Assembly: GCA_019751935.1 (NCBI GenBank) | Contig: JAIEMR010000095.1 | Location: 1-33,188, forward strand | Direction of reading: 5' to 3' | Source of the DNA: Alphaproteobacteria bacterium | Lineage (GTDB): Bacteria > Pseudomonadota > Alphaproteobacteria > Paracaedibacterales > CAIULA01 | DNA: 33,188 bases | Part shown: positions 701 through 29,359 of the stretch, one piece after another | Layout of the letters: the number at the start of each line of letters is the position of its first letter | Numbering within the stretch: position 1 is the first letter of the stretch | Position numbers and translations under genes: made by a program | Notes under the pieces: generated by a model | Databases searched by the model: none | What the model saw: the letters and a program-made list of their open reading frames with translations, nothing else | What the model was told of the DNA's origin: nothing

Positions 701-2746
701 TTAAAAGCTTAACAGAAGTGAATCAGCTGGATCTAAATGACTTTTTACATTCTGGTAAAGAGCCCTTGCGCTAACACCTGCAGGCATATCACCCCGTAAA
801 GTTTCGTCAATAAATCTAAATATTTTATCCTGGTCGATAGCCGCTTTTGAAACTCCATTTGCCAAATAGCGAGCCTCTCTAAATTGGGCCAATGCAATAA
901 CAGTACATTTTAATTGATGTCTTAATAAACGAGCTGCTTTATCCTTATCTAACGATTCCTGGTACGGTTTAAAGAATATATGTCGGATAACCTTTACTTC
1001 CTGTTCAAAAGCTGTATCAATTTCTGATTGAAAATCCATATATCCGTGGTTAGACAAATACCTTATAACCTGTTGTAGATTGCAATCTTTTAATTTTTCT
1101 GTTTCTCTCAGATGCGTTGCAACTGCCTCACATTTCCTTGCAATACTATCAGTAGGATAATTTAATCTAAAACGCTTTCCAATTGCATTTAGCAAGCAAT
1201 TATCAAAACTAGCTGATACAACATGATAAATACCATTTACCATAACCTTTGCTTCTTCAGGGGTTGCTTTTCTGAACTTGATTCCAAAGTTACTAGCACC
1301 AGAAATTATATTTGCCCTGGTTTCTTGTAAATCTAATAATCGTTCGGAACAAACTGCGTTTAGAACTCGCCCACTTAGGGGTAGTGATGGTTCAGTATCT
1401 TTATCTGGTTCCTTTGGCATGCTGTTATAAGTTTCAAAAAAGCTTTTCCATAAACGTTTGCTCTCGGCCCTTAACCCAGGATTACTTGTATCTTGCTGCA
1501 AGAAAGCACGATGAAGTTCTGTTTGGTGTTGATTTTGCACAACCAGTAAAGCAGCATCAGCGAATTCAGAAGCAAACATTTCCGGTTCTTGGGGATTTTT
1601 AATTTCCTTAAGCGCATTAATATATGGCACACCCTCTTCTTTTATTTTTTCCCAAAGTGAATCATTAAGACATAAACTCACATAAGCTCTTATTAATAGA
1701 GAAGGAAGATTATTATCCCTATTTGCCTCATATATTATCTCCTCTGTATTACCAAAAATATCTTCCTTGCCAAAAGTCACTCCTAACTTGTTTAAATCTT
1801 CTAATATTTGATAGAAATCATCTCTTGTCAAAGCTAAGTGGGTTGCCCATGTAATCGAATAAGGCTTAATAAGATCCGTTAGTATCCTGGTAAGAGCAGG
1901 AGATAAGGGGTTGCAAATATAACGGTACAACGGTAAAACACCATATTTATCAGACGTTACAAGCAATTTACCGAGCATAATATCTGCATCAACTTTATCT
2001 GAAAAGTTATCACACTGCTCTGTTGGAATAAGATGAAGAATATTTTTGCCTAGTTGGTTACGATAAGCTGAGTAAAAAAGCACATCCAGCGGTTGGGTGT
2101 AACCAGAAAAAATCCAAAACTCAATAGGAGCGATTAAATTTAATTCCTTGGGCGTAAGTAGCGGATCCCACATGTGGAATAGAAAACTGCAAAAAGTCTC
2201 CATCGCTGCCGATTTTTCGTGCCAAGAGCAATCTTTGGGGAGCTTACATACCCTATCTGCATAGAATTGTACAAGCGAGATCTTAGGATCTGAAAATCTA
2301 TACTCTCTTAAAATTTCAGTGCAATCAGAGGAGTCAAATAAAGAACTCTCATCATATAAGTTTATGAATCTTACCGCATCATATAAGTCAGTGAAGTTTT
2401 CTAATTGAAACAGGTGTAGAGTATTAGGATATTTTTTTAAGTGCGCTAAAAACAGCCTTCTTTTTGACATATATTCAACTTGAATAGGGCGAGAACCATA
2501 ACAACCACGATATTTCACAAAGTTTTCTAATGCTGTAGAATACTTTTGTTCTAAACGTTTAGCTTCTTGTTCAATTGTTTCGATATCAATTTGAGAGATT
2601 TCAGCGGTCGCGTCAGAGGCAAACGCATCAAAAGAAAAGAGGGATAACTTAATTAATAATCCTAAAATTCCTAGTTTCAATAAAAAGGTATTATGAAAAC
2701 GCAAAACAAACATATGAAAATCCTTGCCTAAAACATGGTAAAGCAC
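701..2746 (-). CDS. Secreted orphan protein, family 1 copy a (ankyrin-like repeat signature; paralogue of 10414..11910)
   Basis: 681-aa ORF. A Sec-like signal, MFVLRFHNTFLLKLGILGLLIKLSLFSFDAFA/SD, starts at the internal Met (alternative start 2713). Colinear blocks are shared with 10414..11910: LPLSGRVLN/LPLSGRILS, SNFGIKFRKATPEEAKV/SRFGVKYRKATEDEAET, LLRHQLKCTVIAL/LMRHHLKCTVVAL, DKIFRFIDETL/DEIFDFIDGTL, KEDIFGNTEE/QEDVYGNTAE. Confidence 0.75.
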   Translation of the reverse strand: MLYHVLGKDFHMFVLRFHNTFLLKLGILGLLIKLSLFSFDAFASDATAEISQIDIETIEQEAKRLEQKYSTALENFVKYRGCYGSRPIQVEYMSKRRLFLAHLKKYPNTLHLFQLENFTDLYDAVRFINLYDESSLFDSSDCTEILREYRFSDPKISLVQFYADRVCKLPKDCSWHEKSAAMETFCSFLFHMWDPLLTPKELNLIAPIEFWIFSGYTQPLDVLFYSAYRNQLGKNILHLIPTEQCDNFSDKVDADIMLGKLLVTSDKYGVLPLYRYICNPLSPALTRILTDLIKPYSITWATHLALTRDDFYQILEDLNKLGVTFGKEDIFGNTEEIIYEANRDNNLPSLLIRAYVSLCLNDSLWEKIKEEGVPYINALKEIKNPQEPEMFASEFADAALLVVQNQHQTELHRAFLQQDTSNPGLRAESKRLWKSFFETYNSMPKEPDKDTEPSLPLSGRVLNAVCSERLLDLQETRANIISGASNFGIKFRKATPEEAKVMVNGIYHVVSASFDNCLLNAIGKRFRLNYPTDSIARKCEAVATHLRETEKLKDCNLQQVIRYLSNHGYMDFQSEIDTAFEQEVKVIRHIFFKPYQESLDKDKAARLLRHQLKCTVIALAQFREARYLANGVSKAAIDQDKIFRFIDETLRGDMPAGVSARALYQNVKSHLDPADSLLLSF

Positions 2747-3021
2747 TACTTATTATTTTGTCCCACCTGTTTTTGAAACTGAAAAATAAAAAATTAGCTT
2801 TTTAAGTCTGAAAAATACTGATGCTTGATTTCAAGGGAAAATAGTTACCACAGACGTATAAAAATTTCATGACATCTTTTGTGGTAGAGGCTTATGGTGC
2901 AAACCTTACGGAAAAGAGATGTTGGTAATTAGATATCTTCTAATACAATCAATCCTCTTTACACAATATTAAGAATAATAGTTATATACTATTATGAAAC
3001 AAATGAACTATATTTTCTTTT

Positions 3022-27318: not shown

Positions 27319-27595
27319 TTACTATATACTATAAATAAACAGTATATTTACTGTAAAAATATTTTTCTTAATAGATTGTTAATCAAATTCTGACATGCTC
27401 AAAAGTGGAGAATAACTCTTCATGGGAAATAAAGATGCATGAATTACTGGCTATGAGAAAATTTGTTTCCATATAATGCAACTTTTTAATGTCTTTATTT
27501 TATATAAGTATACAAAGTATATTATATTTAGCGGTGCTGCAATTTTTTCTTAGCAAAGTCTTTTCATTGCTCTTTTTAAAAAAAGGAGTAAGAAG

Positions 27596-29359
27596 ATGAC
27601 AACTGTTACCCAGAAAACCAAACAAATTCTTGTGCTATGCGGGTCACTAATATTGACAGGATCTGCCTTTGCAGCCAGTAGCGGTGAGGGGGGTGATGAA
27701 AATGCACCGCCCAACACTCCTAGAACTACAGCCAGATTATTAACCTACCCCTCTCTTTTTAGTACAATTGGTAGCATGACAAATCGCATTGGAATTAATA
27801 GGGCGGTTAGAAATTTTTTTAGAGAGACTTACCCCGATGGCGTTGATTCAAAAGGATTGGATGAATTTAGGCAGCAGCTAGCAAGAGCGGGTTCTGGTGT
27901 AACTCCTTCTGTTTATGCGCATATTACTAACACACTTCTTCCTATGTATGCTTCACATATGGGGGAAGAGCCTAGTGGAGGCATCAAAAGAAGAGTGCCA
28001 TCATATGATGGTGATGATGAAAGAGACGGCTTTTCAAGAGCTTTGACTGTGAGGACGTCATCAAGAGCTCCTCGATCAATTTTGGGGGACATAACCGATA
28101 CAGTTGATGGAGCAATGTCTCCTTTGACTCTTCCTCCCCTTCTTCGTCTTCTAAGGGAGCCACGACCAGTAGTTCTTAGCTATATGGCAGAACCTTCCTC
28201 TCGAGGGAGGTCACGGTTAACATTGCCACCGATTACTGAAGAGTCTTCTTTTGTGGAGCCAGGTATCCGTCCTGCAACTTTTCTTTCTTCGATTCCATCT
28301 ATTTCGGAGGAGTTAAATAGAAGAATCATTGGCGAGGAGCCAGCAATGGCATCGCTTGCAACTGGCCTGCATGTTCATTATACGATTCAAGACGTTAATA
28401 GTACACTTGAGGCCCTTGGAAGATCTGTCCGTGTTCCTAAACAAAATATTTTTATGTGCGGACCAACTGGATGCGGTAAAACGGCTTCCGTAAAAGCTGC
28501 AGCTAAAAAACTAGGTAGAACCTTTTATGAGGCTGACACCAGCGGATTTACCAGGACAGGATATGTCGGAGATAGCGCTTCTTCAGTTATCATTGGCCTT
28601 ATCAAGGAAGCACAAAATCAAATTACAGACTTTGTTATAGGATCACCTGAATACAAGAGAAAGGTTATAGAACTTGTACAAAAAGGTATCGTGTTTTTAG
28701 ATGAATTTGATAAAATTGGTGCTAAAAAGTCTGGCGGTAGTGAGAGAGATATAGCGGGAACAGACGTTCAGTCTGAACTTTTGAAACTGATGGAAGGTAA
28801 AAAAATAACCGTAAAAGTTGACAAGGAAGACTATGCAATTGATACAACCGATATTCTCTTTATTGCAGGCGGGGCTTTTTCCTCAATTGAAAGAAAAGGC
28901 GGAGAACCCATTGGTCCAGATGCGTTTGTTGAAGCTGGATTTAGCGAGCAAGTCCTAGGACGTTTTGGTCGAAGAATTTTCTTTGAAGGCATGACTCCTG
29001 AAAAATTCGTAAGAATCCTTCACTCTGAAGAAGCATCCCCAATTGTCCAAAATTTATTGCTTTTACAAATGGGCTATGGGATTGACGTTAAATTTGATGA
29101 AGATGCTATGAGACTCATAGCTGAAAGAGGATATGCTATGCAAGCAGGTGTGAGGGGTCTTGCAACTATGGTGAATACTGCGGTTGATCCACTCATTCGC
29201 CGCAGTGAAGAGCTAAAAGGAACAACCTTTACAGTCGATAAAGCTTTTGCAGAGGCTAATCTTCCTAAAGTTGAGCCTAGAAAAAAGGCGGCAAAACCTT
29301 ATACTTTTGAAGACCATATTAGAGATCACCCCAGAGATGAGTATGGTTTTTATAGCTAA
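27596..29359 (+). CDS. ClpX/HslU-family AAA+ ATPase with an N-terminal signal peptide and a low-complexity extension
   Basis: AAGGAG lies 7 nt upstream of the ATG. Signal MTTVTQKTKQILVLCGSLILTGSAFA/AS. Residues about 30-235 are Pro/Ser/Arg/Gly-rich with two LTLPP motifs. Walker A GPTGCGKT (28460..28483), pore loop GYVG (28559..28570), Walker B GIVFLDEFDK (D369 and E370 at 28700..28705), ILFIAGGAF, and sensor-2 GVRGL. Confidence 0.8.
   Translation: MTTVTQKTKQILVLCGSLILTGSAFAASSGEGGDENAPPNTPRTTARLLTYPSLFSTIGSMTNRIGINRAVRNFFRETYPDGVDSKGLDEFRQQLARAGSGVTPSVYAHITNTLLPMYASHMGEEPSGGIKRRVPSYDGDDERDGFSRALTVRTSSRAPRSILGDITDTVDGAMSPLTLPPLLRLLREPRPVVLSYMAEPSSRGRSRLTLPPITEESSFVEPGIRPATFLSSIPSISEELNRRIIGEEPAMASLATGLHVHYTIQDVNSTLEALGRSVRVPKQNIFMCGPTGCGKTASVKAAAKKLGRTFYEADTSGFTRTGYVGDSASSVIIGLIKEAQNQITDFVIGSPEYKRKVIELVQKGIVFLDEFDKIGAKKSGGSERDIAGTDVQSELLKLMEGKKITVKVDKEDYAIDTTDILFIAGGAFSSIERKGGEPIGPDAFVEAGFSEQVLGRFGRRIFFEGMTPEKFVRILHSEEASPIVQNLLLLQMGYGIDVKFDEDAMRLIAERGYAMQAGVRGLATMVNTAVDPLIRRSEELKGTTFTVDKAFAEANLPKVEPRKKAAKPYTFEDHIRDHPRDEYGFYS

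Follow-up and report, generated by a model that had tools for sequence, protein, structure and literature searches.

A close known counterpart of the locus reported here is Candidatus Bodocaedibacter vickermanii, a Holosporales endosymbiont of Bodo saltans with a G+C content of about 40%. Its genome encodes 158 SignalP-positive proteins, of which 105 are uncharacterised and, outside that genome, found in a single metagenome-assembled genome (MAG) only; its secretion machinery consists of Sec and a type VI secretion system (T6SS) only, and an ATP/ADP translocase is listed for it (PMC8163844). The subject of this report is a set of seven genes, C1 to C7, that encode predicted exported proteins and lie scattered over a 33-kb alphaproteobacterial contig (JAIEMR010000095.1, 33,188 nucleotides, 39.8% G+C, about 27 genes; this whole stretch is referred to as the window). 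Like Ca. B. vickermanii, the window belongs to an alphaproteobacterium near the Holosporales with a G+C content close to 40% and many uncharacterised signal-peptide genes restricted to the closest MAGs, and the visible machinery is again Sec and a T6SS, the latter being seen here in a sister genome. Slot-by-slot gene turnover and the ratio of nonsynonymous to synonymous substitution rates (dN/dS), both of which are given below, are absent from the Ca. B. vickermanii analysis (PMC8163844). The window is not a piece of the Ca. B. vickermanii genome itself, as its proteins differ in length from those in the SignalP table published for that endosymbiont.

A second point of comparison is Holospora, also a member of the Holosporales, in which periplasmic proteins of 63 kDa and 89 kDa are released to the host during infection by Holospora obtusa (PMC9866348; references in PMC11909080). 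This amounts to a two-step route, with storage in the periplasm followed by appearance in host compartments. Holospora differs, however, in that it forms specialised infectious cells whose periplasm is huge, and it has no T6SS. T6SS are almost universal in the Holosporineae (PMC11909080), and the presence of tssB, tssC, and tssE on a second contig of one sister genome of the window agrees with this distribution. How endosymbionts of the Holosporales type communicate with their hosts is poorly understood (PMC11909080).

Our preferred reading, which we hold to be fairly probable, is that the seven genes are part of a large, lineage-specific, and fast-evolving Sec-dependent exportome of a Holosporales-near alphaproteobacterium that is probably intracellular. 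Their signal peptides, lineage restriction, fast evolution, and low G+C content at third codon positions (GC3) make them a coherent class. The first-pass annotation, made from the letters of the window alone, had proposed a coherent and apparently uncharacterised secretome. The coherence stands and extends beyond the window, while the novelty was overstated given the precedent of Ca. B. vickermanii (PMC8163844), and as a whole the phenomenon adds one more case to a kind already on record. All seven open reading frames (ORFs) are present at the coordinates that this annotation named, and the gene order of the window bears out that they stand singly or in pairs among conserved genes and are not clustered.

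The placement of the organism comes from a taxonomic scan with PepA from the window, in which each GTDB species was represented by a single genome. The top matches, at 93-94% identity, are in two alphaproteobacterial MAGs, L001 (CAIULA010000029) and L002 (JAIEPD010000061), which serve as the sister genomes in what follows. Identity falls to 62% for genomes labelled as Holosporales, 61% for Candidatus Odyssella, and 55% for Ca. Paracaedibacter and Paracaedibacteraceae. These values suggest that the organism is likely an alphaproteobacterium near or within the Holosporales and similar to Paracaedibacter.

Export signals were assessed with a rule of our own in place of SignalP, which asks for an n-region with basic residues, a hydrophobic stretch of 9 or more residues without charge, small residues at positions -3 and -1, and a cleavage site at residues 15-40. 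A hydrophobic stretch with an AxA-like end is found in all seven N-termini, and C2 to C7 (6/7) pass the rule for Sec type I signals. The n/h/c signal peptides with AxA-like sites that had been read in all seven proteins are thus upheld for six of them, with C1 atypical. The rule also accepted 4/109 cytoplasmic ClpX/HslU-like controls and, among the cytoplasmic proteins of the window, PepA, which gives a false-positive rate of a few per cent; as expected, polytopic membrane proteins also pass it with their first helices. A lipoprotein signal was considered for C3 and C7, which have a Cys in the h-region, and was rejected by eye since the -1 residue is L, I, or M and not G, A, or S.

Conservation of the signals among homologues is more persuasive than the rule itself. 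The signal is retained in 10/10 relatives of C7, 2/2 relatives of C5, and 5/5 relatives of C4 and C6, and signal peptides are kept even where the mature parts of the proteins are at 26-45% identity. Within the C7 family this holds down to 36-41% identity. A relative of C2, P0123, failed the rule because its hydrophobic N-terminus contains no basic residue. Most of the genes without a Pfam match in the loci of related genomes also have signal-peptide starts, including 4/5 in locus L084 (GCA_019749935.1), which carries the C5 orthologue, and several in L001 and in a further locus, L081.

The seven genes fall into five families. C1 (701-2746, minus strand, an ORF of 681 aa) and C5 (10414-11910, minus strand, 498 aa) share 29% identity over 477 residues (E=1e-45) and form family F1, while C4 (9091-9993, minus strand, 300 aa) and C6 (16361-17146, plus strand, 261 aa, between cydA and secB) share 31% identity (E=3e-24) and form family F2. 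C2 (3022-5112, plus strand, 696 aa), C3 (5891-6601, plus strand, 236 aa), and C7 (27596-29359, plus strand, 587 aa) each stand for a family of their own. Searches of Pfam and NCBIfam gave zero matches for C1 to C6. The earlier statement that none of the seven could be assigned to a housekeeping family therefore stands for six genes and falls for C7, which is a ClpX/HslU-type AAA+ protein.

Orthologues of C3, C4, C6, and C7 occur in L001 or L002, C5 has relatives at 83% and 56% identity, and the C7 family comprises eleven clusters among 5.8 billion proteins. The most isolated of the seven is C2, for which a word-indexed search retrieved only C2 itself and four partial relatives came out of 1.84 billion representatives scanned exhaustively with HMMER. 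Neither C2 nor C7 had an exact entry in the contig index. Judged by these matches, the seven genes are lineage-restricted and none is a strict ORFan, so that what had been described as seven orphans are better described as five families with orthologues in sister genomes from metagenomes.

Rates of change were calculated with our own Nei-Gojobori code for the window versus the sister genomes, using the same genome pairs for the neighbouring genes. Eleven housekeeping neighbours have a protein identity of 81-96% and a dN/dS of 0.025-0.13. The candidates range from C3, at about 82-83% protein identity to its L002 orthologue and a dN/dS of 0.115, and C7, at 83% and 0.154, to C4, at 69% and 0.28 against its L002 orthologue, C5, at about 56-59% and 0.28 against its orthologue P0128, and the orthologues of C6, at 45-47% and 0.27-0.36. 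By contrast, CydA and SecB, which flank C6, are 92-96% identical. Selection on the candidates is purifying but relaxed, and their rate of change exceeds that of the neighbours by a factor of three to ten. All ratios obtained for C3 to C7 are below 1, which indicates that these are functional genes.

The slots in which these genes lie are more stable than the genes that fill them. The slot between glmU and dnaQ holds C4 and C5 in the window, while in L002 it holds the C4 orthologue and a third F2 paralogue, and the C5 orthologue of the L002 genome is found on another contig, beside T6SS genes. The C7 orthologue of L001 lies in a different neighbourhood. The position of C6 between cydA and secB is conserved in both L001 and L002, and in L081, where GlmU is only 70% identical, a gene of the F2 family (C4/C6 type) takes the place that C4 has in the window, directly after glmU. 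Slots between housekeeping genes are stable, and their contents vary among sister genomes.

Base composition also sets the seven genes apart. GC3 is 0.278 in the seven versus 0.360 in the other genes of the window (Mann-Whitney p=1.3e-4), while overall G+C is 0.400 versus 0.420 (p=0.035), with the lowest value, 0.359, in C1. The impression that these genes are A+T-richer than their neighbours is thus clear at third codon positions and marginal in overall G+C. Low GC3 together with high dN/dS fits weakly constrained host-interface genes that drift under A+T pressure, and a recent foreign origin is not required. A shared upstream motif, which the first-pass annotation had suggested looking for, did not emerge from the 150 nt 5' of all seven genes: this comparison, of low power, gave A/T-rich words only, plus CAAGGATT in the paralogues C1 and C5. 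Promoter-like and terminator-like sites were no more frequent in the window than in shuffled sequence.

According to the preferred reading, the proteins would be exported through SecYEG and their signals cleaved, after which the products would split into two groups. C4 and C6, with two hydrophobic hairpins each, and the Cys-rich C3 would remain in the envelope or at the surface. C1, C5, C2, and C7 would form a soluble group that acts at the interface or is directed to the host, and this group would leave the periplasm by an outer-membrane step, which might be vesicles, a secretin or TolC route, or a release like that of Holospora. Because C7 needs ATP, its expected site of work would be the host cytosol or else a periplasm that receives host ATP. 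Delivery of the proteins to the host is plausible.

Several points weigh against this reading. No outer-membrane route for Sec substrates was found, the only system seen being the T6SS of a sister genome, and T6SS normally take no Sec substrates. C1 fails the signal rule, having two Lys within its hydrophobic core, and C4 and C6 may be nothing more than inner-membrane proteins of an ordinary kind. The placement of the organism draws on a single protein, and free-living Rhodospirillales follow close behind the named relatives in PepA identity, at 55-59%. Synonymous divergence (dS) is 0.55-1.65, near saturation, which makes the dN/dS ratios approximate.

The alternative that survives best, although we regard it as rather unlikely, is that all seven are ordinary envelope proteins, which stay in the periplasm or membrane without reaching the host and have lineage-specific structural, transport, or stress roles, with C7 then acting in the periplasm as an unfoldase or chaperone that runs on host ATP. 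The F2 proteins bear on this. C4 has a signal peptide ending in ANTHA before SS, a variable acidic and Ser-rich region, and a basic C-terminal tail, and C6 has the same architecture. Both contain two bilobed Gly/Ala-rich hydrophobic hairpins with a coiled coil between them that has a conserved motif, LSPEE..LSDEFFG, given as LTPEE..LSDEFFG for C4. These strongly hydrophobic hairpins would act as stop-transfer segments, and C4 and C6 would most simply be membrane proteins, whether that membrane belongs to the bacterial envelope or to the host. The F2 gene that follows glmU in L081 also suits an old and vertically inherited envelope family.

C4 and C6 have a formal parallel in the chlamydial Inc proteins, which likewise have bilobed hydrophobic domains of about 40 aa flanked by coiled coils. 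C4 and C6 differ from Inc proteins in having two such domains and not one, in carrying a predicted cleavable Sec signal in place of a type III secretion system (T3SS) signal, and in belonging to an alphaproteobacterium. No sequence similarity between C4 or C6 and chlamydial Inc proteins was found.

C3 would also sit comfortably among ordinary envelope proteins. It is a small Cys-rich protein whose signal peptide ends in TFA before GS, and 7/7 cysteines of its mature part are conserved in the orthologue, which is typical of proteins in an oxidising compartment and fits a disulfide-bonded periplasmic protein. It has no family match in Pfam or NCBIfam and none in the PDB. Nor would the energy supply of C7 be an obstacle to this alternative, since ATP must reach the periplasm of bacteria that use ATP/ADP translocases, one of which Ca. 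B. vickermanii is listed as having; on this alternative the host ATP would diffuse in through outer-membrane porins. Against it, dN/dS ratios 3-10 times those of the neighbours and gene gain and loss between sister genomes are more typical of host-interface proteins, and a periplasmic AAA+ unfoldase was not found reported in the literature. The weak ankyrin-like repeats of F1 and the protease-like Cys/His domain of C2, described below, further suggest eukaryotic targets.

Both F1 proteins have an N-terminal export-like segment. In C5 this is a canonical signal peptide, ending in SNAAMA before SD, and it is followed by an acidic stretch, a weak ankyrin-like segment at aa ~147-227, and a conserved C-terminal domain. 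In C1 the hydrophobic segment ends in AFA before SD. The longest C1 ORF starts with GTG, 11 codons upstream of the ATG of Met12; the latter aligns with the start of C5, and CAAGGATT, common to C1 and C5, lies just upstream of it. The true start of C1 is therefore probably Met12 (nt 2713), 33 nt downstream of the annotated start. Pfam ankyrin models gave no match for C1 or C5. A four-sequence F1 profile has designed ankyrin repeat proteins as its top PDB matches (E=0.024-1, profile positions 147-227), and this weak but consistent signal suggests degenerate ankyrin repeats in F1.

The C5 orthologue P0128 lies at 10001-11446 of L084 and adjoins T6SS genes. These T6SS genes, at 12073-18178 of the same contig, include a tssE-like gp25 gene, tssC/VipB, and tssB/VipA, and among the signal-like genes without a Pfam match in this region are two located between tssE and tssC.

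C2 begins with a signal peptide, MTIIKTFFLCIFLFGLHSAKA before TD, and continues with a helical N-region. Two repeats of about 45 aa follow, at aa 324-368 (nt 3991-4125; ITEEEVLKEMIRFAKSGNPDAEKWLLLFKDDYIRQYPGLF) and aa 417-461 (nt 4270-4404; ITEREAIRQMIALKNGGDGQAISWVDAYGRNYKPLYPDLF), each with a Pro-rich linker after it, and one copy of the repeat is also present in the remote relative P0123. The C-terminal Cys/His domain spans aa ~478-677 (nt 4453-5052) and contains DGNCG at aa 510 and HYDHL at aa 635. Two relatives share this domain: P0123, a protein of 603 aa encoded beside recA on its contig, has it together with the repeat region, and P0125, of 295 aa, has it without a signal. Cys513 and His635 (Cys34 and His156 in alignment A1), which are 122 aa apart, are invariant in C2, P0123, and P0125. 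The Asp of DGNC is not conserved, P0123 having GGGIC.

The order of a Cys motif and then a His motif, with DGNCG and HYDHL resembling the corresponding loops, recalls the OTU effectors, such as the Legionella Lot deubiquitinases, ChlaOTU, and the nairovirus vOTU. The known bacterial OTU effectors are substrates of type IV secretion systems (T4SS) or T3SS and are not known to carry Sec signals. The first-pass annotation had called the C2 domain an OTU domain. This call found no support in Pfam, where the isolated domain had no match at E<=10 to the OTU family (PF02338, MEROPS C85) or any other, or in the PDB, where phmmer and profile searches with the domain and with each relative gave nothing significant; a non-significant match of the domain profile (E=1.8) paired the His loop with N-terminal fragments of nairovirus L proteins. 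Alignment by hhalign of the profile with a CCHFV vOTU sequence covered only the Cys loop at a probability of 0.5%, which counts as a lead and decides nothing either way. AlphaFold2 models of the domain had a mean pLDDT of 48.7 with 1 sequence and 42.9 with 3 sequences, both unusable. What remains of the call is two short motifs with an invariant Cys and His, and we describe the C2 domain as a Cys/His domain of unproven fold that is possibly a papain-like or OTU-like protease. The counterpart of C2 in L002 (244-573, P0122) is an ORF of 109 aa in which C2 residues ~138-200 are joined to the last ~40, with the repeats and the Cys/His domain deleted. These deletions suggest that C2 is dispensable or decaying in that lineage.

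In C7, behind the signal peptide (MTTVTQKTKQILVLCGSLILTGSAFA before AS), aa 27-234 form a family-specific N-region that starts with PP.TPRT.ARL..Y and passes into a low-complexity linker rich in Ser, Arg, and Pro. The AAA+ core at aa 235-560 (nt 28298-29275) matches ClpX (E=1e-30) and HslU (E=1e-25) in the PDB and the Pfam families AAA and AAA_2 (E=1e-15). Walker A (GPTGCGKT), the pore-1 loop (GYVG), the Walker B DE, the Arg finger, and the sensor-2 Arg show no variation within the family, a small lid domain is present, and the ATPase motifs stay intact even in members at 36-41% identity. The original assignment to AAA+ proteins is thus confirmed by the Pfam and PDB matches and by the intact motifs.

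C7 nevertheless differs from the enzymes that it resembles. Its NCBIfam equivalog scores are 151 bits for ClpX versus a cut-off of 359 and 122 bits for HslU versus 362. In alignments of the C7 family with the ClpX proteins P0052 and P0061, the zinc-binding N-domain (no Cys cluster), the RKH loop, and the ~25-residue IGF region are absent, and in the alignment with the HslU protein P0114 the I-domain is absent. Judged by these alignments and scores, C7 is neither ClpX proper nor HslU proper. It shares with them the aligned AAA+ core with Walker A and B, GYVG, Arg finger, and sensor-2 Arg, and adds to it the Sec signal peptide, the new N-region of ~200 aa, and a C-terminal tail of the form Hb-[Y/F]-X. 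The nearest relatives outside the family are ClpX-like proteins of ~367 aa, P0013-P0018, one of which is named as from a Desulfobacca MAG, and which lack the zinc-finger Pfam domain PF06689. Proteins of this type may be the stock from which the exported C7 family arose. C7-family genes in other genomes also stand alone among housekeeping genes, for example beside gltX and a cytochrome bc1 operon.

The tail that follows the lid domain of C7 is about 30 residues long, contains a conserved peptide, FE.H...HP, and ends in FEDHIRDHPRDEYGFYS (nt 29297-29356). The last three residues of family members are FYS, FYN, MYV, MYT, MYS, MFM, MFA, or MFI, that is, Phe or Met at position -3 in 11/11, with Tyr at -2 in 8 and Phe in 3. 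A hydrophobic-[Tyr/Phe]-X end is found in 11/11 C7-family members versus 0/109 other ClpX/HslU-like matches. In the HbYX activators of the proteasome (PAN, Rpt2/3/5, Mpa/ARC, Cdc48/p97, and Blm10/PA200), which are hexameric AAA+ or cap proteins, the last three residues, a hydrophobic residue, Tyr, and any third residue, insert into pockets of the 20S alpha-ring. The C7 family is like these in the FYS, FYN, MYV, MYT, or MYS ends of 8/11 members, but it has Phe in place of Tyr in the other 3, and its core belongs to the ClpX/HslU clade and not to the PAN/Rpt clade. The C7 tail thus shows a resemblance to the HbYX tail of proteasomal ATPases, and only a resemblance.

It is a genuine puzzle that an intact ATPase should follow a conserved signal peptide, and the ATP requirement would be trivially solved if the hydrophobic N-termini were N-out/C-in anchors or fortuitous hydrophobic ends, with C7 a cytoplasmic protein tethered to the inner membrane like FtsH or Msp1. 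The Lys-bearing segment of C1 and the false positives of the signal rule, PepA and the 4/109 controls, would also agree with such anchors. In 11/11 members of the C7 family, however, a basic n-region (K/R) precedes the hydrophobic core and acidic residues (DD, GEGGDE) follow it, which by the positive-inside rule predicts an N-in orientation, as in exported proteins, and not an N-out anchor. The h-regions are moreover only 10-16 residues long before their AxA-type sites, too short for a stable transmembrane helix, and we consider anchoring very unlikely.

Least probable of all would be one-step delivery of the seven as substrates of the T6SS or another system, with the signal-like N-termini acting only in the host, for example in targeting to the ER or membranes: the n/h/c design is common to eukaryotic ER signals, T6SS are nearly universal in the Holosporineae (PMC11909080), and the sister-genome T6SS directly adjoins the C5 orthologue, which is suggestive only, but a functional Sec signal would send the proteins into the periplasm before the T6SS could load them, ER signal peptides do their work during translation and so could not serve a protein that is injected in finished form, and no effector hallmarks (vgrG, hcp, PAAR, or adaptor genes, or marker domains) were found near any of the seven in the window.

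Sec-dependent export of the seven proteins, as in the preferred reading, brings back the question of how C7 would be powered. The first-pass annotation had held that an AAA+ protein has no energy source in the periplasm. This is sound for free-living bacteria and unsafe for one that lives in the cytosol of a host. There, host ATP can get to the inner-membrane ATP/ADP translocases only by passing the outer membrane, and given the translocase of Ca. B. vickermanii, the view that an AAA+ protein cannot work in the periplasm needs to be qualified. The supplementary text on Ca. B. vickermanii lists no AAA+ or ClpX-like protein with a signal peptide (PMC8163844), which sets C7 apart from that system. 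In the literature we found no report of a Sec-exported AAA+ ATPase or of a periplasmic AAA+ unfoldase, which is no proof of novelty, and the signal-peptide ClpX-like family looks new.

One proposal for the C7 family, which we consider quite improbable when taken as a whole, is that it represents a Sec-exported unfoldase of the ClpX/HslU type, without the ClpP-docking IGF loops and with a flexible HbYX-like tail, that either caps a host peptidase or acts in the periplasm. In the host, a C7 hexamer would dock on the 20S core or on the mitochondrial HslV of protist hosts, as an alternative cap that redirects proteolysis. In the periplasm, it would be an unfoldase fuelled by host ATP, which might, for example, feed proteins through an outer-membrane exit.

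Among the conserved genes around the seven, Pfam was used to check a GST, TamB, a member of the Bax-inhibitor-1 family, and an ABC ATPase that is cut by the left end of the window, while ThyX, GlmU, DnaQ, PepA, CydA, SecB, RecR, DapD, and DapE, together with two MFS transporters, an aquaporin, and an enoyl-CoA hydratase, were named from their sequences and orthologues. No tRNA genes or Rfam families were found in the window, which thus lacks the signature of a tRNA-linked island. The gene cydA (14342-15877, minus strand), for cytochrome bd subunit I, has no cydB downstream of it, and its 3' end meets that of the convergent pepA (12858-14345, plus strand) with a 4-nt overlap; both features recur in L001 and L002.

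The spacer between secB and an MFS gene is 1.7 kb in the window versus ~0.3-0.4 kb in L001 and L002. It contains a toxin-antitoxin-like pair (17945-18439, plus strand), in which a 70-aa Gp49/HigB-like protein is directly followed by a 93-aa HTH_3 (XRE-type) protein. The former matches PF05973 (E=2e-21) at profile positions 26-90 and is possibly shortened at its N-terminus. Given the difference in spacer length, the pair looks like a small genome-specific insertion. In the same insertion lies a 152-aa ORF without a signal peptide (18728-19186, plus strand), which comes just short of the threshold for the AbiTii abortive-infection domain PF18864 (E=8e-6, 26.7 bits versus a cut-off of 27.6) and has no homologue in L001 or L002.

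The Holosporales and other protist endosymbionts like them are barely tractable, and to the exportome of Ca. B. vickermanii the window adds a second and better-resolved example, with five families, rapid divergence, and the turnover of genes in fixed slots. C7, if the proposal made for its family were true, would amount to an AAA+ machine at work in a compartment in which no bacterium is thought to have one, whichever of the two sites it occupies, and if it acts in the periplasm it would be the first ATP-driven unfoldase known there. The conservation of both its catalytic motifs and its export signal down to about 40% identity raises the question of where outside the cytoplasm an endosymbiont spends ATP. 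The answer bears on how Sec substrates leave a cell without a recognisable type II secretion system, and on whether host nucleotides energise the periplasm of bacteria that live in the cytosol.

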